From a virus, in UHGV virus genome UHGV-0203597: a DNA stretch of 41,485 bases; one strand, written 5' to 3'. The position numbers were made by a program, and so were the translations under genes. Position 1 is the stretch's first letter. Every line of letters starts with the position of its first letter. Below the pieces are notes generated by a model that was given only the letters and a program-made list of their open reading frames with translations, made no database searches and was not told where the DNA came from. Positions 1 to 29,577 of this stretch are shown here, piece by piece.

Positions 1-36
1 GTGGATTGGTGCTGTTTTTCCATGATAGGGGTAATT

Positions 37-417
37 ATGAGAAAAGTATTTTTGATTTTTGGATTTATGCTTCTCGTTGGATGCCAGTCAGCTGCACAGT
101 TTGAAAGAAATATGCTTACGTGGCGCGGGCAGAGTATAGACGCAATGGTTCAGCAGTGGGGGTATCCTCAGGGAGAGCTTACATCTCCAGATGGAAACAG
201 AGTGTATGTTTACTCAAGCTCTGGTAGTTATAACGTACCACAAACCACAACGTATAATACTACGTCTAATCTAATTGGTAATACTATATATTCAAACACA
301 TACGCAACAACTGATGGCGGTTATACACTCCATTTCAGTTGCTCTGTTTACGTTGAGTTTGGTGCTGATAAGATTATTAAAAATGTTACATGGCGCGGTA
401 ATAATTGCGTTGCGTGA
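37..417 (+). CDS. Putative lipoprotein (moron; candidate superinfection-exclusion or lysogenic-conversion protein)
   Basis: ATG at 37 with AGGGG 6 nt upstream; signal peptide MRKVFLIFGFMLLVGC with lipobox LVGC; Ser/Thr/Tyr/Asn-rich mature part; AT-rich; no TTACC-N5-GGTAA site upstream; followed by hairpin terminator. Confidence 0.6.
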   Translation: MRKVFLIFGFMLLVGCQSAAQFERNMLTWRGQSIDAMVQQWGYPQGELTSPDGNRVYVYSSSGSYNVPQTTTYNTTSNLIGNTIYSNTYATTDGGYTLHFSCSVYVEFGADKIIKNVTWRGNNCVA

Positions 418-425
418 CATGTCAC
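414..425. repeat. 12-bp perfect palindrome GTGACATGTCAC, copy 1 of 3
   Basis: Overlaps the TGA stop of the lipoprotein gene; identical 12-mer at 22054-22065 and 24541-24552. Confidence 0.5.
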
Positions 426-426
426 A

Positions 427-450
427 GGCCGCTTTCGCGGCCTTGTTTTT
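427..450. terminator. Rho-independent terminator hairpin GGCCGC-TTTC-GCGGCC plus T-tract
   Basis: Perfect 6-bp GC stem, 4-nt loop, then TTGTTTTT on + strand; lies between convergent genes; same 18-mer repeated at 3783-3800. Confidence 0.6.
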
Positions 451-610
451 AACGAATGCCACCGCCACCCGGGCGGGAATCCGCAGAACGCCCACCGCAG
501 CGGGAGCCGTCAGCGGCAGTATCGCTGTCGTGCTGACAACGACCGGCAAAGGCCTGAGTTGAAGCTACCAGAGACAACAAAACGAACAGTGCAGCAAATG
601 CTTTTTTCAT
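449..610 (-). CDS. Small secreted peptide (53 aa, SPase I-type signal, two Cys in mature part)
   Basis: ATG at 610; MKKAFAALFVLLSLVASTQAFA then GRCQHDSDTAADGSRCGG...; last gene of the minus-strand operon after the YafO-like gene; weak RBS. Confidence 0.35.
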   Translation of the reverse strand: MKKAFAALFVLLSLVASTQAFAGRCQHDSDTAADGSRCGGRSADSRPGGGGIR

Positions 611-691
611 TGTGAAATTTCCATCTATAAACCACCTCAATGTGGCGTCAATGAGTGTAGCACTGACTTTTGTTTCGTCCATAAAAAACTA

Positions 692-1204
692 CTATGCAGG
701 CTTTTTGGATTTGTACGAATAATCCCACGGATAAACATTTCTACTAAGTGGAGCTGTATTCGTTCGTTCATGAAATAATTTTGTGAAATTCAATACGGAA
801 TCCATCCAAACTTTTGCGTTAGCTTTGGTGTGTGCGGGCGGGTCCCAATAAGCTAGTAAGGCTGCATCTCTTATTTCATTGACTGCATATATGAGATATG
901 CGTTACTGGTTGGTTTTGGCCTGTAATTTCCTTGTTCATCAATCAATCCATATGACCACTCATCCCAACACTGTTCAGTACATGAGTATGAATATGATGC
1001 ATATTCACCAATATTGACATGAACCTTTCTGAGATGGAAGCCTAATACTTCGTCTGGTCTTTCAAAAAGAGTATCTTTTCCCAGATCAGGATGATGACCA
1101 TGACGCCAGTGTTGTTTAAAAGCATCTTTTAGCGAAATCAGAAAGTCATCAGTTTTAAACTCACCAGTAGGTATAACCTTCCCGCTATACTCACTCAAAA
1201 ACAT
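692..1204 (-). CDS. YafO-family toxin-like protein (paralog 1)
   Basis: 170 aa; motifs HWRHGHHPDLGKDTLF, RKVHVNIG, YLIY, AALLAYWDPPAH recalled as matching E. coli YafO (RDGxLPDxFGRD, VAHIHL, LVYC, AWLLIAILKPEPH); 14-nt overlap with upstream gene. Confidence 0.5.
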   Translation of the reverse strand: MFLSEYSGKVIPTGEFKTDDFLISLKDAFKQHWRHGHHPDLGKDTLFERPDEVLGFHLRKVHVNIGEYASYSYSCTEQCWDEWSYGLIDEQGNYRPKPTSNAYLIYAVNEIRDAALLAYWDPPAHTKANAKVWMDSVLNFTKLFHERTNTAPLSRNVYPWDYSYKSKKPA

Positions 1205-1517
1205 CGAATTCCTCTTCCTTCATATGCGTTTCTAATGAGTTAAGCTGGCGGAAAGATATCTCTTTTGATTCTGCAGATGAGAGCTTTTTTATCCGCTTTA
1301 TATTCTTTGTGATAGGAATAGACATTGTATGCACATCAGCGGATGCTCTTGGCTTTGTGCTGATAAAAATATGGCGCAATGCCGCATTTTCACTATTGAA
1401 CGAGCCAATAGCTGATTTACGTGCTACAACCTTACCAGTAAAAATACGACTCTTGCTACGCTTTGCATGAGTTCCGCTTCTTACCGGACCTCTCATCACG
1501 AATCCAAGTTTTGTCAT
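1191..1517 (-). CDS. Small basic protein, putative cognate partner/antitoxin of YafO-like paralog 1 (no family recognised)
   Basis: 108 aa, Lys/Arg-rich with acidic C-terminus EEEFDVFE; GGAGA RBS; overlaps toxin-like gene. Confidence 0.4.
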   Translation of the reverse strand: MTKLGFVMRGPVRSGTHAKRSKSRIFTGKVVARKSAIGSFNSENAALRHIFISTKPRASADVHTMSIPITKNIKRIKKLSSAESKEISFRQLNSLETHMKEEEFDVFE

Positions 1518-1559
1518 CTTTAATCTCCGGTAAGTTACAGGTATAAAATAAAAACAGGT

Positions 1560-1574
1560 TTACCTTTAAGGTAA
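1560..1574. promoter_or_regulatory. TTACC-N5-GGTAA operator-like palindrome
   Basis: ttacctttaaggtaa, 43 nt upstream of the minus-strand ATG at 1517. Confidence 0.45.
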
Positions 1575-1640
1575 TATTACGCGAATCTACATCACATCGC
1601 CAATGATTATTTTAAAGGCACATCCCTGTGCCGCCGCTCG

Positions 1641-2336
1641 TCAGAAGAACCCTGCCTTGTCGTTGATGTACTCCGCGTGGGTCTGGATATCACGCAGGCA
1701 TTTGCTCACACCGACGATGTAGCAGAACATGGTGGTCAGCTCCGCCGCCGCGCCCGATACGTCGTGCCCGTCTTCCTGTAACTGGTTCAGCAGATTCATC
1801 AGCAGTGAGTTCTCCGTCAGGCCGAGAACACCAGACGGCGAGTGAATCAAACTGCGGTAGCCGGGCTTCAGTGGGGCGCTGTAGGTTTTGTTCTCTATCT
1901 TCATTGCCTGCATCACTGCTGATGCTGTGGCGTTGGCTACCTGGTCGGCAACCATCTTTATGCGTTCTTCCTGCGGGAGCGAGTTTTTAATGTAACTTCC
2001 GGTGCGGCGGATCTGAGGAAGAACCTCACCTGTAACCCATTTACGAAAGCGGTAGGGGATAGTGCCTGGTGTCACTGCGTCGCGGCAGCGGAGGATCAGT
2101 GTGTAGAGGCCTGACTCGGAGATGATGATCGATTCTTGCTCACCGCCAGGGGTGTCGGTTGAAGCGACGCCCTTCTCATCATCATCAAGTTTTCGAACAG
2201 CATCTCGATGGTTTGCTATGCCTATAGCCCGACAAACATCTGAAGCGATAAACCATGGCTCACCATTTATGACGATTACTCGTATATCGGCTTGGGATTC
2301 GAAAGAAAAAATGGACGTGCTTTTTGTAGCTGTCAT
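1641..2336 (-). CDS. BRO-N domain antirepressor-like protein with Ant-type C-terminal domain
   Basis: 231 aa; N-terminal motif PWFIASDVCRAIGI typical of BRO-N; C-terminal ~70 aa paralogous to the small protein at 3805-4062. Confidence 0.75.
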   Translation of the reverse strand: MTATKSTSIFSFESQADIRVIVINGEPWFIASDVCRAIGIANHRDAVRKLDDDEKGVASTDTPGGEQESIIISESGLYTLILRCRDAVTPGTIPYRFRKWVTGEVLPQIRRTGSYIKNSLPQEERIKMVADQVANATASAVMQAMKIENKTYSAPLKPGYRSLIHSPSGVLGLTENSLLMNLLNQLQEDGHDVSGAAAELTTMFCYIVGVSKCLRDIQTHAEYINDKAGFF

Positions 2337-2605
2337 AGTGGTTACCTTTTAGTCTGGTTAATCACCACTACCGACGCCAATCGGTTGGTGGTGAACTGTG
2401 CAGGGTTGGCGTAACCGGCTAAAAGGACCCGGCGCACCTTTCGGTGCCCCCACACAGCCCACCATAATACGAATGTGGCCGTGCTATACGCATAAAAAAA
2501 CCGCTTGCGCGGTGAATGCGCCTTTTAGTAATCCGGAACGCCAATCCCGGCACTGGATTTTGCCAGTGCCCGATTACTATGGCACAAGAGGAGTGCAATG
2601 TAAAT

Positions 2606-2620
2606 TTACCGCAAAGGTAA
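2606..2620. promoter_or_regulatory. TTACC-N5-GGTAA operator-like palindrome
   Basis: ttaccgcaaaggtaa in the 420-bp divergent intergenic region between the BRO-N gene and 2758-3285. Confidence 0.45.
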
Positions 2621-2730
2621 TGATAAATGCATAACTCACGTCATTTCAACCCTATGTGGTTTGATTGATCCCATTTCAGAAAATACCTGCCTATTTTTTT
2701 GCCAGTGAGCGTATACTTTCGATAGAATGT

Positions 2731-2745
2731 TTACCCTAAAGGTAG
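2731..2745. promoter_or_regulatory. TTACC-N5-GGTAg operator-like site (one mismatch)
   Basis: ttaccctaaaggtag, 13 nt upstream of the ATG at 2758. Confidence 0.35.
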
Positions 2746-2757
2746 TTGGGGGTGCCC

Positions 2758-3285
2758 ATGAACACGAAGAGAGTTACAGCGATGAGGCATAGACGCTTTG
2801 CCTTGAAAAGGCCTGAAAAAGAAAAAGAGCAAGAGATGGTGATTGAAGCAGCCGCTTATGCTGCAGCTATGGCAACTGCTGATGCGATTAGAAATTATGA
2901 AGAAGAGGATAATAAAAATTCCTATCGCATTTACTTATATGAGAGCCGTCACAGTGTTACAGACCATGAAGCATGCCTAAAAAAACAAGGGGAAGTATTC
3001 CACTGCAACCTTGCTGAGTACATTAGGAATGAAATGGAAAGGAATTTGGCTTTATCTCATTTTGGATACAAGAGTCAGGAAAGTGGTTTCGCTGGCTTTA
3101 AGGATAAAATTAACGAAAGGTGGCAACGTTTATACAAGCCACTTCAAGTTGATGAGAAAACTCATCAACTTGTTATGCATGAGGTCCCAAAGATGTCCGT
3201 AGAGAAATCCCATGCAATCTCGCGCAGGATGTTTGCACGCACTGCTGAAGACATGGCTCAGGAGCTCTACGACGATGCCGAATAA
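2758..3285 (+). CDS. Hypothetical charged helical protein, putative partner of YafO-like paralog 2
   Basis: 176 aa from ATG 2758 (alternative 2746); acidic C-terminus ELYDDAE; stop overlaps start of downstream toxin-like gene; unrelated to the 108-aa partner. Confidence 0.4.
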   Translation: MNTKRVTAMRHRRFALKRPEKEKEQEMVIEAAAYAAAMATADAIRNYEEEDNKNSYRIYLYESRHSVTDHEACLKKQGEVFHCNLAEYIRNEMERNLALSHFGYKSQESGFAGFKDKINERWQRLYKPLQVDEKTHQLVMHEVPKMSVEKSHAISRRMFARTAEDMAQELYDDAE

Positions 3286-3781
3286 ATTCCAGGGGTTGGT
3301 TCACCCTGGAATTTTTGGGAAGGACCCTGAGCTAATACCTATCAAAAACGCGTTCATAGATCACTGGCGCTACGGTCATCATAAGGATTTCGGAAAGGAC
3401 ACTCTGTTTCGAGATCCACCGAAAGAGATGCTGGAATATCACATACGCCACGTTCACTTAAACATCGGAAACTATACTGACAAGTTTGGTGAGAGCGGTA
3501 CGGAACAATGCTGGAAAAACTGGGCGTCTGGGAAGAAAGACAAGACCACTAACAAGCATAAAAAGATCCCAACCAGTGACGTGTATGTGATTTATCTGGT
3601 CACATCTGAACGCCATGCCTTCCTTCTGGATTATTGGGATGAACCAGCGCATAAGACAGTAGAAATTGACGAGCAGAAGCAAAAATTAGTTGTCGAGTGT
3701 GACAGAATTTTGCGGCTGAAAAAGTTAGAATCCATGCCGCGCGATGCAAGTTTGTGGGACCCAGAATTTTACGACTGTTAA
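3275..3781 (+). CDS. YafO-family toxin-like protein (paralog 2)
   Basis: 168 aa from MPNKF; motifs HWRYGHHKDFGKDTLF, RHVHLNIG, YVIY, AFLLDYWDEPAH align with paralog 1. Confidence 0.5.
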   Translation: MPNKFQGLVHPGIFGKDPELIPIKNAFIDHWRYGHHKDFGKDTLFRDPPKEMLEYHIRHVHLNIGNYTDKFGESGTEQCWKNWASGKKDKTTNKHKKIPTSDVYVIYLVTSERHAFLLDYWDEPAHKTVEIDEQKQKLVVECDRILRLKKLESMPRDASLWDPEFYDC

Positions 3782-3782
3782 T

Positions 3783-3808
3783 GGCCGCTTTCGCGGCCTT
3801 TTCTTTAT
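3783..3808. terminator. Bidirectional terminator hairpin GGCCGC-TTTC-GCGGCC plus T-tract (second copy)
   Basis: Same 18-mer as 427-444; between convergent genes ending at 3781 and 3805. Confidence 0.6.
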
Positions 3809-4062
3809 GTGGTTTGTTTTCGTAATTGTTCGGCACAATAGTCGAGATGTGTTTGCAGATCCTGCATAGACATCTGTGAGCTGGTGACGTAGTTAATCAG
3901 TGCAGTCAGTTCGGCAAGTGGGCCATCGACATTAAATCCATCCTTATCGAGATCCCGGAGTAATTTCATCAAGTGCGATCCCTCCACCAGTGACCTGACG
4001 CCTCCCGGCGTGTGAATCCTTTCGGTAAATCCGTCTTCCAGTGGATAGTGATACTGCTGCAT
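3805..4062 (-). CDS. Small Ant C-terminal-domain-like protein; candidate SOS-inducible antirepressor
   Basis: 85 aa from ATG 4062 (GGAGAAG RBS); paralogous to the C-terminus of the BRO-N protein; LexA box about 20 nt upstream. Confidence 0.5.
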   Translation of the reverse strand: MQQYHYPLEDGFTERIHTPGGVRSLVEGSHLMKLLRDLDKDGFNVDGPLAELTALINYVTSSQMSMQDLQTHLDYCAEQLRKQTT

Positions 4063-4081
4063 CTTATCTTCTCCATGCAAT

Positions 4082-4101
4082 AACTGTATATTTATACAGT
4101 A
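4082..4101. promoter_or_regulatory. LexA (SOS) box
   Basis: aaCTGTatatttatACAGta; minus-strand reading TACTGTATAAATATACAGTT matches consensus TACTGTATATATATACAGTA at 18/20. Confidence 0.6.
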
Positions 4102-4138
4102 GCAAATAATTTGTTTGCTATCCAGCACGTTTTGCAAA

Positions 4139-4153
4139 TTACCTGAAAGGTAA
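4139..4153. promoter_or_regulatory. TTACC-N5-GGTAA operator-like palindrome
   Basis: ttacctgaaaggtaa, identical to the site at 25529; between the LexA-box gene (minus) and the tailspike (plus). Confidence 0.45.
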
Positions 4154-4257
4154 TATCTATTCGTATTTACAGCCTTTCTATCCATATGTGGTTTTCCAGG
4201 TAATAGAATAACCAGATATGCGGCGCAACGGGTGCTGCGACTATCTGGAGATTTAAC

Positions 4258-6909
4258 ATGACGGTCTCAACCGAAGTTGACCACAACGAATACACCGGTA
4301 ACGGAGCTACGACATCATTTCCGTATACCTTCCGTATTTTCAAAAAATCCGACCTGGTTGTTCAGGTGTCTGACCTGAACGGGAACGTAACAGAATTGGT
4401 TCTGGATACTGACTACACAGTAACCAATGCTGGAGGATATAATGGCGGTAATGTAATTCTGTCGAAGGCGTTGGCTAACGGTTATCATATTTCTATATCA
4501 CGAGAGCTCCCGGTTACGCAGGATACTGATTTGCGTAATCAGGGTAAGTTCTTCGCTGAGGTACATGAAGACGCGTTCGATAAACTGACAATGCTTATTC
4601 AAAAGTGTTTTTCATGGATGAGGTTAGCACTTATAAAACCAAGCATTCTGGCTAACTATTATGATGCAAAAAATAATAAGATATCAAATCTAGCAAATGC
4701 CACTGACAGAAACGATGCTGTCAATAAAGGTTATGTTGATGATCTTTTTACTGGAGGTGTAACGCCTACACCTAACAGCGCTAAAAACGATATTTTTACA
4801 AATCACCAAAGAAAGATTGTAGCTACGATGCCGCTTCTTTTTCCTGAATATGATGCGATTATGGCTGCTAACCCGTCAGCAACTTATATGTATCCTCAAG
4901 GATTCTGCGTTAGCGAAGATTTGATATACATCACTTATCCATTTGAGCCTAAACAGACGAATAATGTCGTCGCAGTATTTAACATATCTGGTATTTATCA
5001 AGGTTATTTCTATGTTCAGGCTGGCGGCCCAGGCTTCGCTGCTGAAGGAATCGTGGTTACGTCAGACTATGGCCCCAAAAAAATGTTTGTTGGTCACACA
5101 AACGGAATACTGCGTGAATTTAATATGGAGGGGGCATTATACGGAAGCAATCTGCCTCTTGTACAAAACCATGATGTTGGATTATTCAACCAGTTCAGCT
5201 ACAGAAGAGGTATATGGCTCGTTGAGCAGAATGCGCCAGAAGTAGGACAGAAAATCACAAGAACTGTACTTGCAGTGTTCGACAGTGGTTTCAATCGCCT
5301 GTCAACTATAACGCTGCCGTTACATGATGTTGGGTATGTAACTAAAAGCACCTCACCTTATGCGCCTTATTTCAACAAGCGTCAGGGTATTGCGGTAGGT
5401 GATAACTACTTTGTCTGCGGCTATGGCGGCTTCATAGCTGATGGGGCAGGAAGCGCAGGATATAACGAATATCAGGGCAGCAAAGTTTTTAACCCTGACG
5501 GTACAAAGCGAACTGAATCAATGCTTCATCCTCAGGCCATGATGGATTTAATGAAAGCCGCAGGATTGAACGTCACTCGCATAGAAAATGAAGGCGTTTG
5601 TGTTTCTCAGGATGGAAAATCCATTTATTCACTTTACATTCATCAGGAAAGAACTGGCTCTGAACCTTACAATTCAGGTTTGGTTATTTTCGAAGATTTC
5701 TCCACTGATAAAGATGCTATCGATTTTACACCTGCATCCAGGCTTTACCGCGGATTTGATATCGATCACGCGAGCATTGGGGTATATCCCCGTAGTGCGA
5801 AGGGGATTGTTAACCCTGTAGATGGTACGTTGTTCACTAACATGACTGAAATTCTTCGCTATATGCAGGAGATGAGTCAGAAGGCATTTAATTTTTACAC
5901 AGGGACTGTCAGCATTGCTGATATATCTGGCGTGGCAATCCCTTCCAGCACATATGTTGAAATACTGAATGCGAATAATCAGACTTTTATAGTCAACTAT
6001 TATTCATCTGATAGTGGCATTAGTTATTTGGTTGCAACTAATCCTTCTGGTGACTTTGTATTTGTGCGCCAGCGACCGGCACAGTGGGCATCTAACTTAA
6101 CCATTCAGCAAAACGCAGATCCTGATACAAACCAATTAAACCGCATCACTGCATCATCATATGCCGGTGCAACTACAAACTCTCAGAAAATATTGGTCCT
6201 TGACCAGCAGGCTACAGCTAGCGCAAATAGCTTGGTATTGGGCGGTAGTTCTTCTGTGTTTAGGTCTGCCACCACGGTGGATATTGCATGCAACAGCGAC
6301 CCGACAGCATTGGGAGGAACCATACGCTGGCGGTTTTATGATACAGGTCTTCGCCCGTTTGCTGACAATACCTATAATTTTGGTCAGGCATCGTTTCGTA
6401 TTAAAGACGCCTACTTTGCAAATGCCCCAACCGTTTCATCAGATGCCACGCTGAAAACCAATCCCGAGGCAATATCAGATTTAAGTGAAATGCTTTCTTC
6501 TGATAGAGACAGCATTCTTGATGCCTGGGGCGATATTTCTGTTGTGGCGTATCGATGGCTCGACGCTATATCCATGAAGGGCGATGGTGCCAGATGGCAT
6601 TTTGGCGTCATGGCTCAGCAGGTAAGGGATGTATTCTTGGCGCACGGAATTGATGGAACCAGATTTGGCCTTCTTTGCTATGACGAGTGGGATGATATTT
6701 TTGAGCCGGTAATCGCGACTAAAGAGATTACCGATACGTCTGGTGAGTTGGTCACCGTCGAATATGACACCGGAGAACAGAGGCTGGTTAAAAAAGCGGG
6801 TAGTTCATGGGGTATACGGCCTGACCAGTGCGCTTGGCTTGAGGCTGCATATCAGCGCCGTCGATGCGATCGTATTGAAGAGCGACTCGAACTATTGGAA
6901 TCAAAATAA
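4258..6909 (+). CDS. Tailspike / tail fibre with T7 gp17-like N-terminal domain and C-terminal S74 intramolecular chaperone
   Basis: 883 aa; N-terminus resembles T7-type fibre anchor; C-terminus has RWHFGVMAQQV and GLLCYDEWDD recalled as S74 auto-processing chaperone motifs; central domain unassigned. Confidence 0.8.
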   Translation: MTVSTEVDHNEYTGNGATTSFPYTFRIFKKSDLVVQVSDLNGNVTELVLDTDYTVTNAGGYNGGNVILSKALANGYHISISRELPVTQDTDLRNQGKFFAEVHEDAFDKLTMLIQKCFSWMRLALIKPSILANYYDAKNNKISNLANATDRNDAVNKGYVDDLFTGGVTPTPNSAKNDIFTNHQRKIVATMPLLFPEYDAIMAANPSATYMYPQGFCVSEDLIYITYPFEPKQTNNVVAVFNISGIYQGYFYVQAGGPGFAAEGIVVTSDYGPKKMFVGHTNGILREFNMEGALYGSNLPLVQNHDVGLFNQFSYRRGIWLVEQNAPEVGQKITRTVLAVFDSGFNRLSTITLPLHDVGYVTKSTSPYAPYFNKRQGIAVGDNYFVCGYGGFIADGAGSAGYNEYQGSKVFNPDGTKRTESMLHPQAMMDLMKAAGLNVTRIENEGVCVSQDGKSIYSLYIHQERTGSEPYNSGLVIFEDFSTDKDAIDFTPASRLYRGFDIDHASIGVYPRSAKGIVNPVDGTLFTNMTEILRYMQEMSQKAFNFYTGTVSIADISGVAIPSSTYVEILNANNQTFIVNYYSSDSGISYLVATNPSGDFVFVRQRPAQWASNLTIQQNADPDTNQLNRITASSYAGATTNSQKILVLDQQATASANSLVLGGSSSVFRSATTVDIACNSDPTALGGTIRWRFYDTGLRPFADNTYNFGQASFRIKDAYFANAPTVSSDATLKTNPEAISDLSEMLSSDRDSILDAWGDISVVAYRWLDAISMKGDGARWHFGVMAQQVRDVFLAHGIDGTRFGLLCYDEWDDIFEPVIATKEITDTSGELVTVEYDTGEQRLVKKAGSSWGIRPDQCAWLEAAYQRRRCDRIEERLELLESK

Positions 6910-8819: not shown

Positions 8820-8969
8820 TTTCCGGTGACGGTATATAAAACGGTACGGTGAAAATCATGTTACAGAAAGTTGTTACCAGTCAATTGGTTATGCATGCCG
8901 TAAATAATTGAGTGGGAATGATTAACAGCTAACTCATAGCAACTCATTCCTATTCAGATACTAATTTAA

Positions 8970-14623: not shown

Positions 14624-14670
14624 TAATTATGCGTATATGGTTTGATGTCAATAGATATGAGTTAAAAAAA

Positions 14671-14685
14671 TTACCCGTTAGGTAA
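14671..14685. promoter_or_regulatory. TTACC-N5-GGTAA operator-like palindrome (left operator region)
   Basis: ttacccgttaggtaa. Confidence 0.5.
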
Positions 14686-14704
14686 TCGAATAGGCAATAA
14701 AAAA

Positions 14705-14742: not shown

Positions 14743-15327
14743 TTATTGTTTGTTTTTTTCGTTCTGGTTGATGACAAATTCAATGTAACTTTCGATCTTT
14801 GCTTTCTCGGTTTCGGGTAACAATGCGTAGCGTGAGCGGTCATAGTTGATAGTCGCAGGGTCGTGCGGGTGAATCAGTAGTTCATATCCGTGACGCCCGA
14901 ATGCGGATGCAACATTCTCCAGGGTGGAAATGGAAACGCTGACCTCATTGTTTAACAGGCGGCTGATTGTCACCTGGGCGACGCCGGATGCGCGGTGAAG
15001 TTTTCCCTGAGTTGAAAGGTCGCGGCTTTCACTCATCCAGCGTTCCAGGTTGTGAGCTGCCAGCTGACCAATGTCGCTTGGGCCGACAGGCTGAAAACCT
15101 TCCTGAGAAAGCGAGCGATCGATATCAAGCCAGTTACGGGGTTTATTGGCGGCAGCTTCAATTTTTCGCGCAACCTGGTCGCCGATAACCTTCTTGCCAA
15201 GAGCCCAGCGGTTTACCAGATTTGCCTGAGTTCCAAGTTTTTCTGCCATCCGCGTCTGAACACCATTGAATTCACGGTCGATCAAGTCGTTGAGATTTTG
15301 CCTGCGGACGTCCTGGATACTTTTCAT
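14743..15327 (-). CDS. Prophage repressor, two HTH domains, no LexA-like autocleavage domain
   Basis: 194 aa; HTH-like segments near residues 25-45 and 105-130; no Ala-Gly/Ser-Lys protease module; flanked by operator palindromes on both sides. Confidence 0.6.
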   Translation of the reverse strand: MKSIQDVRRQNLNDLIDREFNGVQTRMAEKLGTQANLVNRWALGKKVIGDQVARKIEAAANKPRNWLDIDRSLSQEGFQPVGPSDIGQLAAHNLERWMSESRDLSTQGKLHRASGVAQVTISRLLNNEVSVSISTLENVASAFGRHGYELLIHPHDPATINYDRSRYALLPETEKAKIESYIEFVINQNEKNKQ

Positions 15328-15382
15328 TTTCTGGAAAATCGCCTCATATATGAATCAGTAGATGATTCAATTTAAAGCAATA

Positions 15383-15397
15383 TTACCCAACAGGTAA
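15383..15397. promoter_or_regulatory. TTACC-N5-GGTAA operator-like palindrome (right operator region)
   Basis: ttacccaacaggtaa between divergent repressor and cro-like genes. Confidence 0.5.
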
Positions 15398-15430
15398 ATG
15401 CACCCCATAGGTAACTATCCTTGATTTTTG

Positions 15431-15445
15431 TTACCTTATGGGTGA
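15431..15445. promoter_or_regulatory. TTACC-N5-GGTgA operator-like site (right operator region)
   Basis: ttaccttatgggtga, one mismatch. Confidence 0.4.
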
Positions 15446-15481
15446 ATATTTATTATCTGAAATAAATATCAGGCAATAGCT

Positions 15482-17670: not shown

Positions 17671-17707
17671 TACCAGCGCGATAGCGCATTTTTTTACGCC
17701 TCGACAA

Positions 17708-17722
17708 TTACCTGTTAGGTAA
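17708..17722. promoter_or_regulatory. TTACC-N5-GGTAA operator-like palindrome
   Basis: ttacctgttaggtaa. Confidence 0.45.
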
Positions 17723-17769
17723 TAAAATATTCTAAAATCTATTGATTTCGTGTCTTATGTGGTTTTTAA

Positions 17770-24966: not shown

Positions 24967-25052
24967 GAACTGGAAGCAATGAGTTATGCCTTCCGTGGCT
25001 GTACTGGTTTACAGCATGAAGTCATCGCAATGGCGTCCTGCTGTAAAAAGGG

Positions 25053-25129: not shown

Positions 25130-25206
25130 TGGCGTGGCATGCAGGATTCGAACCTGCGACCAACCGCTTAGAAGGCGGTTGCTCTGTCCAACTGAGCTAA
25201 TGCCAC
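25130..25206 (-). tRNA. tRNA-Arg (anticodon UCU), phage-encoded variant
   Basis: 77 nt GTGGCATTAGCTCAGTTGGACAGAGCAACCGCCTTCTAAGCGGTTGGTCGCAGGTTCGAATCCTGCATGCCACGCCA; full cloverleaf with 7-bp acceptor stem, GTTCGAATC T-loop, encoded CCA; D and T arms match recalled E. coli argU, acceptor and anticodon stems differ. Confidence 0.85.
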
Positions 25207-28539: not shown

Positions 28540-29526
28540 ATGGCTGTTAAAGGCTTAACTGCGCTAACGCTGGCTGACTGGGGTAAGCGCGTCGATCCAA
28601 ACGGGAAAGTCGATAAGATTATCGAGCTTCTCGGTCAAACTAACCCGATCCTTCAGGATATGCCTTTTGTCGAAGGGAACCTTCCTACCGGACACCGAAC
28701 CACCATTCGTTCTGGTTTACCTTCAGCTACCTGGCGTTTGCTGAACTATGGCGTACAGCCAAGCAAATCAACCACAGTGCAGGTAACCGATTCCGTTGGC
28801 ATGCTGGAAACCTATGCTGAAGTCGATAAGTCACTGGCTGATCTGAACGGTAATACTGCCGAATTCCGCCTGTCTGAAGACCGCGCATTTATTGAAGCGA
28901 TGAATCAGCAGATGGCGCAGACACTGTTTTATGGTGATTCCAGCGTTAACCCTCAGCAGTTTATGGGACTGTCCTCCCGCTATTCCAGCCTGTCTGCGGG
29001 TAATGCTCAGAACATCATTGATGCTGGTGGCACGGGTACAGATAACACCTCAATCTGGTTAGTGGTGTGGGGCGAAAACACCGTGCATGGCATCTTCCCG
29101 AAAGGGCAGAAGGCTGGCATCCAGATGGAAGATAAAGGCCAGGTGACACTGGAAGATGCTAATGGCGGCAAGTACGAAGGCTACCGTACCCATTACAAAT
29201 GGGACAACGGACTTGCTCTGCGTGACTGGCGTTATGTTGTTCGCATTGCAAACATCGATGTCAGCAATCTTTCAGAACCATCCTCTGCCGCAAATATTGC
29301 GAAGTTGATGGTTAAAGCACTACATCGCATTCCAAACCGTGGCATGGGCCGCCCGGTGTTCTACATGAACCGCACTGTAGGCCAGGCTCTTGATCTGCAG
29401 TCTCTGGAGAAAACATCTCTGGCTATCAGCGTAAAAGAGACAGAAGGCGAGTGGTGGACTTCATTCCGTGGTGTACCAATCCGTGAAACTGATGCGCTTC
29501 TGGAAACAGAAGCCCGCGTGGTGTAA
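28540..29526 (+). CDS. Major capsid protein
   Basis: About 329 aa (ATG 28540 with AGAGAGG at 8 nt; alternative 28534); position and size typical of HK97-fold coat proteins. Confidence 0.7.
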   Translation: MAVKGLTALTLADWGKRVDPNGKVDKIIELLGQTNPILQDMPFVEGNLPTGHRTTIRSGLPSATWRLLNYGVQPSKSTTVQVTDSVGMLETYAEVDKSLADLNGNTAEFRLSEDRAFIEAMNQQMAQTLFYGDSSVNPQQFMGLSSRYSSLSAGNAQNIIDAGGTGTDNTSIWLVVWGENTVHGIFPKGQKAGIQMEDKGQVTLEDANGGKYEGYRTHYKWDNGLALRDWRYVVRIANIDVSNLSEPSSAANIAKLMVKALHRIPNRGMGRPVFYMNRTVGQALDLQSLEKTSLAISVKETEGEWWTSFRGVPIRETDALLETEARVV

Positions 29527-29577
29527 CGCCTGTTATTAACCTGTGGGTCGTAACAGACCCACTAATGGAGAAAGAAG

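Follow-up and report, generated by a model that had tools for sequence, protein, structure and literature searches.

A small gene at positions 3805-4062 of the window, that is, of the whole 41,485-nucleotide stretch of viral DNA analysed here (UHGV-0203597), is very probably ant, the gene of a LexA-held antirepressor which would trigger SOS induction of the prophage by inactivating the repressor Rep, as in phage SPC32H. The window is the complete genome of an Escherichia coli Uetakevirus belonging to the epsilon15/phiV10/SPC32H group. In the lysogen, host LexA sitting on the box in front of ant would keep the gene silent, because the box is predicted to cover the -10 element of the ant promoter and its start site, and Rep bound to operators of the type ATTACC-N5-GGTAAT would repress the lytic genes. 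Since Rep cannot cleave itself, DNA damage would act indirectly: RecA* would drive the self-cleavage of LexA, ant would then be transcribed, Ant would bind Rep and remove it from its operators, and the prophage would go into lytic growth.

This finding is correct but already known: in the sister Salmonella phage SPC32H, genetic and structural work has established the switch of Ant, Rep and LexA (Kim & Ryu 2013, J Virol 87:11775; Kim et al. 2016, PNAS 113:E2480; PDB 5D4Z and 5D50). Consequently, because the switch is textbook-level for Uetakevirus, its confirmation here has mainly annotation value. The first-pass annotation had proposed a LexA-controlled antirepressor as the induction route and had taken Tum of phage 186 and the Gifsy prophages as the reference; the route itself is supported by the orthology with SPC32H, but Tum and the Gifsy proteins are analogues only and SPC32H is the proper reference. 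In the passage of PMC7380047 that cites Kim & Ryu 2013, LexA self-cleavage permits the synthesis of Ant, which then inactivates the repressor, and in that of PMC9638917 citing Kim et al. 2016, the SPC32H Ant tetramer binds two Rep dimers, breaking the DNA-binding Rep tetramer. Furthermore, phage ZX5 carries Rep and Ant identical to those of the window, and mitomycin C raises the titre of a ZX5 lysogen from 1e7 to 1e9 PFU/mL (PMC9782041).

Table 1. Features of the window that bear on the proposed ant switch.
Feature	Position	Strand	Remarks
Second antirepressor gene, 231 aa	1641..2336	minus	N-terminal BRO-N and C-terminal Ant-paralogous domain
GC-rich hairpin GGCCGC-TTTC-GCGGCC	3783..3798	plus	Terminator call; between the convergent YafO-like gene and ant
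ant, 85-aa small antirepressor	3805..4062	minus	Very probable, by orthology to SPC32H Ant; range includes the stop codon
Shine-Dalgarno sequence GGAG	4071..4074	minus	8 nt before the ATG at 4062
LexA (SOS) box	4082..4101		Palindrome, no strand; 20 nt; 18/20 to consensus
Putative ant promoter	4096..4124	minus	-35 TGGATA (4124-4119), 17-nt spacer, -10 TACTGT (4101-4096)
Rep-operator-type palindrome ATTACC-N5-GGTAAT	4138..4154		No strand; perfect copy; between ant and the tail-fibre gene
rep, 194-aa prophage repressor	14743..15327	minus	Presumed target of Ant; two HTH-like domains, without S24 peptidase domain
Operator-like cluster, rep/cro-like intergenic region	15382..15446		No strand; ATTACCCAACAGGTAAA (15382-15398), GTTACCTTATGGGTGAA (15430-15446)

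The identity of the gene product is clear from several comparisons. Residues 2-85 of the 85-aa protein align with residues 3-86 of PDB 5d50_E 'Anti-repressor protein' (E=1.3e-47), and the identity to SPC32H Ant is 88% by tblastn and 89% (76/85 identical) by global alignment over the full length; the SPC32H orthologue is named 'ant: anti-repressor protein' in GenBank. The homology to SPC32H Ant (~86 aa) is of the full-length, single-domain kind. In addition, the protein matches phrog_450 (E=1e-47). It corresponds to the C-terminal domain alone of the BRO-N protein of the window and is not an Ant of the BRO-N/P22-P1 type; the paralogy with the BRO-N protein C-terminus, which had been noticed beforehand, amounts to 42% identity over 74 aa (E=8e-16), and both proteins match phrog_450. 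A Pfam search of the 85-aa protein gave no Bro-N (PF02498), DinI or Tum match, and DUF724 was dismissed as sub-threshold (17.6 bits vs a cut-off of 38.4). When ant is compared with its counterparts in SPC32H, epsilon15 and Tyrion, dN/dS is ~0.05 at a pS of ~0.65, with synonymous sites near saturation, and the gene is under strong purifying selection. Its start codon lies at 4062-4060, and the Shine-Dalgarno block TTGCATGGAG is kept across orthologous ant loci. At the other end, the hairpin sits 7 nt past the ant stop codon, and in the epsilon15 record a rho-independent terminator is annotated at the equivalent place after gp19; the hairpin may terminate ant transcripts.

Rep, the presumed target, aligns over its full length (residues 1-190) with PDB 5d50_A 'Repressor' (E=4e-42) and is 100% identical to the repressors of phiV10 and ZX5. 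That the repressor has no autocleavage domain, as had been stated at the outset, is confirmed, since the Pfam matches of Rep are to HTH-type families alone (HTH_3, HTH_26 and similar) and Peptidase_S24 is absent from them; moreover, neither an Ala-Gly nor a Cys-Gly dipeptide is present in the Rep translation. Rep, the presumed cognate repressor, belongs to the same family as SPC32H Rep and has no S24 domain, but its identity to SPC32H Rep is just ~42% (41.8-42.7% overall, 54% in the N-terminal and 38.5% in the C-terminal domain). In SPC32H, Ant reportedly binds the C-terminal domain of Rep (Kim et al. 2016). By orthology, Ant would bind the Rep of this phage too, on the assumption that the interface is conserved; the C-terminal domain of Rep is only 38.5% identical, against 89% for Ant. 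Furthermore, the two proteins go together: Rep homologues of full length occur in 36 phage records, and these include all 35 records with Ant.

Sites of the type ATTACC-N5-GGTAAT with at most two mismatches number 15 in the window against 1.2 expected, and 12 of the 15 are intergenic; the motif is also clustered in the rep-cro intergenic region of SPC32H. The perfect copy beside ant is located 36 nt upstream of the LexA box, a spacing kept in 15/15 loci (35 nt in the Klebsiella phages), and the homologous palindrome is annotated 'protein_bind: repressor' in the epsilon15 GenBank record. Because of this palindrome, ant may have a second input which the simple model ignores. On the side of the tail-fibre gene, TTGCAA-N16-TATCTA, with the operator as its spacer, is a weak promoter candidate that is not conserved in SPC32H.

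The window also encodes a second antirepressor, a 231-aa protein with a Bro-N domain (E=2e-21), which is 100% identical to ZX5 ORF4 'anti-repressor'. Overexpression of ZX5 ORF4 lowers lysogeny 1000-fold, with a prophage titre of 1e6 instead of 1e9 and 75% less rep mRNA (PMC9782041). Directly upstream of the BRO-N gene are Rfam-significant isrK and C4 antisense RNAs. Within the C4 loop, 8 nt (CCTTTTAG) show complementarity to the Shine-Dalgarno region of this gene (candidate pairing CCUUUUAG/CUAAAAGG). The BRO-N gene preceded by isrK and C4 RNAs is like P1 immI (c4-icd-ant) and Gifsy-1 isrK-anrP, but the isrK and C4 RNAs of the window do not control the small, LexA-boxed ant, and in its C-terminal domain the BRO-N protein resembles SPC32H Ant, not P1 Ant. 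It might be asked, then, whether LexA controls ant but the BRO-N/Ant-like protein is the chief inactivator of Rep in this E. coli lineage, the small Ant being auxiliary or acting mainly in trans on the repressors of other prophages. The effects of ORF4 on prophage titre and rep mRNA speak in favour of this explanation, the BRO-N type being the one of the two antirepressors tested experimentally in ZX5, as do the C-terminal domain of Rep, 38.5% identical to that of SPC32H against 89% for Ant, and the crosstalk by trans-acting antirepressors documented for Gifsy prophages (PMC3121763). Nevertheless, this explanation is improbable. The BRO-N/Ant-like gene is accessory, being absent from SPC32H, and the phiV10 record has a single Ant-like place, whereas all phage records with this Rep family bar one have ant and its LexA box, and ant is subject to the strong purifying selection described above. 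In addition, the PWM scan of the window gave no LexA box at the BRO-N gene, so this gene cannot alone link induction to SOS, and yet ZX5 is mitomycin-inducible.

It is conceivable, if rather doubtful, that the two antirepressors make up a two-stage circuit, in which a LexA-gated pulse of Ant would inactivate Rep and thereby derepress the Rep-operator-flanked, isrK/C4-gated BRO-N antirepressor, and in which ant would be Rep-sensitive through the Rep operator upstream of the LexA box. If this were true, the BRO-N antirepressor would fix the lytic decision or carry it in trans to further prophages, and the Rep operator by ant would be a double lock or a feedback loop; such a circuit is undescribed so far.

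As for the LexA-held ant itself, the box reads AACTGTATATTTATACAGTA on the plus strand and TACTGTATAAATATACAGTT on the minus strand, the latter with 2 mismatches to the consensus TACTGTATATATATACAGTA, and its core CTGT-N8-ACAG lies at 4084-4099. A match to the LexA consensus with at most 3 mismatches occurred in 0/100 dinucleotide-preserving shuffles. On a position-weight matrix (PWM) built from 20 E. coli SOS boxes, whose absolute bit values are approximate, the box scores 27.4 bits, the best training site 26.5 and the weakest 12.7, with a maximum of 19.2 over 100 shuffles; the second-best site in the window, at 10.3 bits, is under the weakest training site. Because of this gap and of the shuffle maximum, the window is held to have no other credible LexA box. 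The core is present in three copies, at 4084, 24999 and 29541, and only that at 4084 has an AT-rich spacer; the other two have GC-rich spacers and are attributed to chance, scoring 10.2 bits at 24999 and falling outside the 12 best PWM sites (<5.8 bits) at 29541. The first-pass annotation had reported a near-consensus box at 4084-4099, matching at 18 of 20 positions, about 20 nt upstream of the start of the small protein and the only LexA-like one in the window; scoring with the matrix bears this out (27.4 bits vs 10.3 for the runner-up), the distance from the end of the box to the ATG is 19 nt, and one credible site remains once the two GC-rich, low-scoring cores are discounted. With its palindrome, its AT-rich spacer and a score in the range of proven sites, the box has the properties of an E. 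coli-type LexA operator, and by orthology host LexA is expected to bind it.

The box was further compared in 15 diverse loci, including SPC32H, epsilon15, phiV10, Klebsiella phages, Citrobacter, Enterobacter, Erwinia, Pseudocitrobacter and Scandinavium. It is in the same position in all of them, with conserved CTGT and ACAG arms but a variable N8 spacer and variable flanks. Arms kept across genera around a free spacer are the signature of LexA recognition and not of a -10 element. The box arms, the block GCTGGATA (in the non-Klebsiella loci), the Shine-Dalgarno sequence and the operator stand at fixed spacing in the 15 loci despite the synonymous saturation in ant. The surroundings are likewise maintained: ant is divergent from the tail-fibre or tailspike gene in SPC32H, SPC32N, phiV10, epsilon15, EC.W1-9, Tyrion, BUCT554 and the Klebsiella phages, and the window, an epsilon15-like genome, has ant divergent from its tail-fibre gene. 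There is also a natural mutant. SPC32N differs from SPC32H by 2 substitutions in the 6.2-kb locus, and one of them, a C-to-A change, turns ACAG into AAAG and so destroys this arm of the homologous box, the PWM score being 19.1 bits in SPC32N vs 25.4 in SPC32H. These data bear on the view that the LexA-like palindrome is a promoter-associated AT-rich lookalike, with ant controlled by Rep via 4138-4154 or expressed constitutively at a low level. A Rep-operator-type palindrome is indeed conserved beside the ant promoter, but the box outscores all 20 of the bona fide E. coli SOS boxes in the matrix, the cross-genus pattern of arms and freely changing 8-nt spacer is that of LexA, and the SPC32N substitution hits the ACAG arm, which is downstream of the putative -10, so this view is highly improbable.

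The ant promoter is probably TGGATA-N17-TACTGT, judging from conservation and from the example of phage 186. Its proposed -10, TACTGT, is the left arm of the LexA box, and all non-Klebsiella orthologous loci have the block GCTGGATA unchanged, the spacer being variable. A generic sigma-70 promoter scan of 3700-4300 found none; it missed TGGATA-N17-TACTGT because this agrees with the consensus at only 7/12 positions. The hand-picked candidates TTGCTA-N17-TATTGC, TAGCAA-N18-TATAAA and TTGCAA-N17-ACAAAT were set aside. TGGATA-N17-TACTGT is preferred because it has the sole -35 block invariant across genera and mirrors p95 of phage 186, and by the same conservation and the p95 layout the LexA box would overlap the ant -10. 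The maximal reading frame in the ORF list is one of 126 aa (3805-4185, ATG at 4185), but that this is the real gene and the LexA-like sequence coding and not operator is next to impossible and is rejected, as the alignment of the crystallised SPC32H Ant, 86 aa long, starts at residue 2 of the 85-aa protein, the GenBank and PGAP annotations all take the short form, GGAG stands before the internal ATG, and the 120 nt upstream, compared with SPC32H, show an indel and conserved regulatory-like blocks (operator, -35 block, box) between variable stretches, which is not codon-like.

Among the known systems, SPC32H is the closest. It is of the same genus, Uetakevirus, its Ant is 89% identical over the full length, and its Rep has the same architecture and is matched over the full length. 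The two phages also share the distance from the LexA box to the ant start codon, the 36 nt between the box and the Rep-operator palindrome upstream of it, the operator motif ATTACC-N5-GGTAAT and an ant gene divergent from that of the tailspike or tail fibre. The differences are the host (Salmonella vs E. coli), the ~42% identity of Rep and the N8 spacer of the box (ATGTTTAT in SPC32H vs ATAAATAT here); furthermore, SPC32H is without the moron block found here downstream of ant, which consists of the BRO-N/Ant-like antirepressor, the isrK and C4 RNAs and two YafO-like pairs.

Phage 186 shares the logic with its Tum and p95, namely a non-cleavable CI, a LexA-repressed antirepressor and SOS induction. 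In the p95 layout, TTCACA-N18-TACTGT, the LexA box starts at the -10 and ends 18 nt before the start codon (19 here), and the box of phage 186, TACTGTATGTTTATACAGTA, is identical at 20/20 positions to the ant box of epsilon15. However, phage 186 is a P2-like myovirus, a different type of phage, with a repressor of another family, Tum (146 aa) resembles DinI in its C-terminal half (PMC3121763), and a one-to-one comparison of Ant with Tum gave no significant similarity (16.5 bits, E=0.07). By sequence, Tum is a functional analogue and not a homologue of Ant. Small antirepressors whose synthesis follows the cleavage of LexA are also known from Gifsy-1/-2/-3 (GfoA, GftA and GfhA) and Fels-1 (FsoA) (Lemire et al. 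2011, PMC3121763); they bind non-cleavable repressors and sit far from the immunity region (PMC3121763). The ant of the window differs from the Gifsy operons in being monocistronic, beside the tail-fibre gene and without dinI: ant is directly behind the box and is followed by the hairpin and a convergent gene, which is not a Gifsy-type operon. The Gifsy proteins are taken here as functional analogues only.

PhiV10/TL-2011b-type prophages are found in O157, O103 and ExPEC strains and are O-antigen modifiers. Recognising ant explains how such prophages would be SOS-inducible without a cleavable repressor. The points raised by the window are an Ant conserved at 89% with a Rep conserved at 43%, a Rep operator near the ant promoter and an RNA-gated second antirepressor. 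The ZX5 paper studied the BRO-N antirepressor alone and makes no mention of LexA or SPC32H (PMC9782041), and the small ant gene is a 'hypothetical protein' in the ZX5 GenBank record, as the gene is in all of the RefSeq records listed and in nearly all E. coli phage records. Of 5,426 complete E. coli genomes, 529 carry the locus of ant and its LexA box.

The evidence supports reading the ant locus as the E. coli orthologue of a switch described for the Salmonella phage SPC32H, and because that switch was published in 2013 and 2016 the locus is rated as already known. The 41,485-bp window is the whole genome of an epsilon15/phiV10-type podovirus (genus Uetakevirus), and its ant region is 96-99.6% identical to that of the E. 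coli phages EC.W1-9, TL-2011b, ZX5, phiv142-3 and phiV10. By tblastn the 85-aa product, Ant, is found in 35 phage records including the Salmonella phages SPC32H and SPC32N, whose homologue (88% identity) was deposited as "ant: anti-repressor protein"; in a global alignment with SPC32H Ant, 76 of the 85 residues are identical (89%). Among PDB sequences it matches only chain E of 5d50, the 86-aa "Anti-repressor protein", along the full length (E=1.3e-47), and the prophage repressor Rep matches 5d50_A, "Repressor" (E=4e-42, residues 1-190), as well as 5d4z, the Rep C-terminal domain. Therefore, Ant and Rep are orthologous to the two SPC32H proteins whose complex has a solved structure. A Pfam search of Rep gave HTH-type families only and no S24 peptidase, in agreement with the first-pass annotation that the phage repressor has no autocleavage domain. 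Its reading of the small gene as a LexA-controlled antirepressor is upheld by the orthology of both partners and by the SPC32H LexA box (TACTGTATGTTTATACAGTG), which lies at the homologous position.

The two partners have diverged from SPC32H very unequally, Ant being 89% identical and Rep 42.7% (54% in the N-terminal and 38.5% in the C-terminal domain), and the repressors of phiV10 and ZX5 match the window Rep at 100% identity. Because of this inequality, the binding of Ant to Rep in the window phage is put forward as a prediction from sequence. It is supported by co-occurrence, all 35 phage records with Ant being among the 36 with a full-length Rep homologue, by an operator motif common to this phage and SPC32H, and by the mitomycin C inducibility of a ZX5 lysogen (1e7 to 1e9 PFU/mL, PMC9782041). 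Two readings would fit this inequality: Ant may bind Rep through a small patch that has been conserved, or something other than Rep may also constrain Ant.

The LexA box has two mismatches to the 20-nt E. coli LexA consensus, and dinucleotide-preserving shuffles of the window gave no match to this consensus at three or fewer mismatches. A position weight matrix (PWM) was trained on 20 E. coli SOS boxes, its absolute bit values being approximate, and the box scores higher on it (27.4 bits) than does the best training site (26.5 bits). The runner-up in the window has 10.3 bits, below the weakest training site (12.7 bits), and the maximum over 100 shuffles is 19.2 bits; therefore, this is the sole LexA-like box in the window, as had been claimed. 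For the bare core CTGT-N8-ACAG, three copies were counted where 0.48 would be expected, and the two outside the box have GC-rich spacers. The start codon of ant follows 19 nt past the end of the box, so that the proposed near-consensus box upstream of an 85-aa reading frame is borne out.

The regulatory region was compared in 15 diverse loci from phages (SPC32H, SPC32N, phiV10, epsilon15, EC.W1-9, the Enterobacter phages Tyrion and BUCT554 and three Klebsiella phages) and prophages (Citrobacter braakii, C. werkmanii, 'Ca. Erwinia dacicola', Pseudocitrobacter and Scandinavium). The box is present at a constant distance from the start codon in all 12 non-Klebsiella loci, 11 of which score 22.6-27.4 bits and SPC32N, with an arm mutation, 19.1 bits; the arms CTGT and ACAG are invariant except for the SPC32N change and the eight spacer bases vary freely. 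The three Klebsiella Uetakevirus-like phages have ATGT for CTGT in the left arm (ATATGTATATATATACAGTA, 17.5-18.8 bits), and SOS control of ant may be leakier there or of another kind. Fixed spacing across loci is also kept by the Shine-Dalgarno block TTGCATGGAG, by a GCTGGATA block that precedes the box by 17 nt and by an ATTACC-N5-GGTAAT palindrome that precedes it by 36 nt (by 35 nt in the Klebsiella phages). Recent divergence is rejected as the cause of this conservation because synonymous sites of ant are near saturation against SPC32H, epsilon15 and Tyrion (pS about 0.65, dN about 0.08, dN/dS about 0.05). In addition, the box is present in 77 of 80 near-identical IMG/VR contigs, the other three probably having no upstream DNA.

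Direct comparison of the SPC32H and SPC32N loci gave two differences in 6,252 bp, one of which changes a box arm from ACAG to AAAG, and with it the PWM score drops from 25.4 bits in SPC32H to 19.1 bits in SPC32N. This mutation is said, in the work of Kim and Ryu of 2013, to make Ant constitutive and to send SPC32N into the lytic cycle. The mutated SPC32N box and the Klebsiella phage boxes (17.5-18.8 bits) are weak to a similar degree. PMC7380047, citing Kim and Ryu (2013), states that LexA self-cleavage permits synthesis of the antirepressor, which inhibits the repressor through protein-protein interaction, and PMC9638917, citing Kim et al. (2016), describes the DNA-binding form of Rep as a tetramer that is split when an Ant tetramer binds two Rep dimers; a 2025 preprint gives the SPC32H Ant mechanism in similar terms.

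The palindrome adjoining ant corresponds exactly to the epsilon15 GenBank feature "protein_bind: repressor". With up to two mismatches, the motif occurs 15 times in the window against 1.2 expected, 12 of the 15 copies being intergenic, and clusters in the rep/cro-like intergenic region; the set looks like Rep operators. In two pairs the copies are spaced 62 bp (14608/14670 and 17707/17769), and a similar pair is present in SPC32H (1255/1317 of its locus); this spacing may fit tetrameric Rep.

A generic sigma-70 scan of 3700-4300 found no promoter. In phage 186, the annotated promoter p95 (-35 TTCACA, 18-nt spacer, -10 TACTGT) has as its -10 the first six bases of the LexA box, and 18 nt separate the end of that box from the start codon of tum. 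Applied to ant, this layout gives TGGATA-N17-TACTGT as the most likely promoter, and between operator and box nothing but the TGGATA block is invariant; LexA would cover roughly -12 to +8 of this putative promoter. The LexA boxes of 186 tum (29044-29063) and epsilon15 ant are identical at 20 of 20 positions (TACTGTATGTTTATACAGTA), start at the putative -10 and end 18-26 nt before the start codon, although the antirepressor genes are unrelated, and this looks like convergent promoter design. Ant has no significant similarity to Tum (16.5 bits) and neither a DinI-like nor a BRO-N domain was found in it. Gifsy antirepressors belong to a LexA-controlled operon with a dinI homologue first, downstream of replication genes (PMC3121763), a layout not found at the window ant locus. 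Thus, the suggested likeness to 186 Tum and Gifsy prophages holds for the mode of working but not for descent, and Ant belongs with the Ant proteins of the SPC32H family.

The 231-aa BRO-N protein, a second antirepressor, combines a BRO-N domain with an Ant-like C-terminal domain, which confirms the paralogy noticed earlier. It is 100% identical to ORF4 of vB_EcoP_ZX5, called "anti-repressor" in PMC9782041, where its overexpression lowered lysogeny about 1000-fold. Directly upstream of its gene lie isrK-like and C4 RNAs in tandem; the Shine-Dalgarno region of the gene lies in CTAAAAGG, to which the C4 loop segment CCTTTTAG is complementary, and a one-mismatch operator copy (2605-2621) directly adjoins a -35-like TTTACA that lies upstream of the isrK-like RNA. 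This module has no LexA box and is separate from ant, and the arrangement points to control of the second antirepressor in the manner of P1 immI or Gifsy-1 isrK. Two phrog_1651 paralogues, to which PGAP gives the name "type II toxin-antitoxin system YafO family toxin", each follow an overlapping ORF, and the two sets look like toxin-antitoxin-type moron pairs on either side of the BRO-N module; the right-hand pair, not present in ZX5, separates ant from the BRO-N gene.

Features of the ant locus and associated elements
Feature	Coordinates	Strand	Remark
LexA box	4082-4101	+	AACTGTATATTTATACAGTA; minus strand TACTGTATAAATATACAGTT
ant	3805-4062	-	85 aa, ATG at 4062
GGAG	4074-4071		upstream of the ATG
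Putative ant promoter	-35 TGGATA 4124-4119; -10 TACTGT 4101-4096		17-nt spacer; layout as phage 186 p95
Other CTGT-N8-ACAG copies	24999, 29541
rep	14743-15327	-
ATTACC-N5-GGTAAT, perfect	4138-4154, 14670-14686, 17707-17723
ATTACC-N5-GGTAAT, one mismatch	1559, 2605, 14608, 15382, 17769, 22329, 22347, 25528
BRO-N protein gene	1641-2336	-	231 aa
C4 antisense RNA	2384-2469	-	Rfam 77.7 bits, above gathering score
isrK-like Hfq-binding sRNA	2494-2569	-	Rfam 72.3 bits, above gathering score
YafO-like pair, left	692-1204, 1191-1517	-	phrog_1651 gene and overlapping upstream ORF
YafO-like pair, right	3212-3781, 2746-3285	+	phrog_1651 gene and overlapping upstream ORF
attP core	8907-8923		ATTGAGTGGGAATGATT
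tRNA-Arg(TCT)	25130-25206	-	one tRNA-Arg gene in phage

The practical value lies in annotation of the ant locus in E. coli genomes. Of 5,426 complete E. coli genomes, 529 carry the segment with ant, LexA box and operator (query 3805-4160) at 90-100% identity, and among the matches listed the feature is a "hypothetical protein" in all but one, a partial match without an annotated feature. The LexA-boxed small ant of ZX5 (100% identical over 84 aa) is likewise a "hypothetical protein" in its GenBank record, and PMC9782041 on ZX5, the only paper with experiments on an E. coli phage near-identical to this one, does not discuss the small ant and mentions neither LexA nor SPC32H. Relative to the prophage, the window is circularly permuted: 1-4300 is found at 100% identity in E. 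coli B19695, where the final 183 nt of the window directly precede position 1, and the attP core is intact between the lysis genes and the integrase gene.
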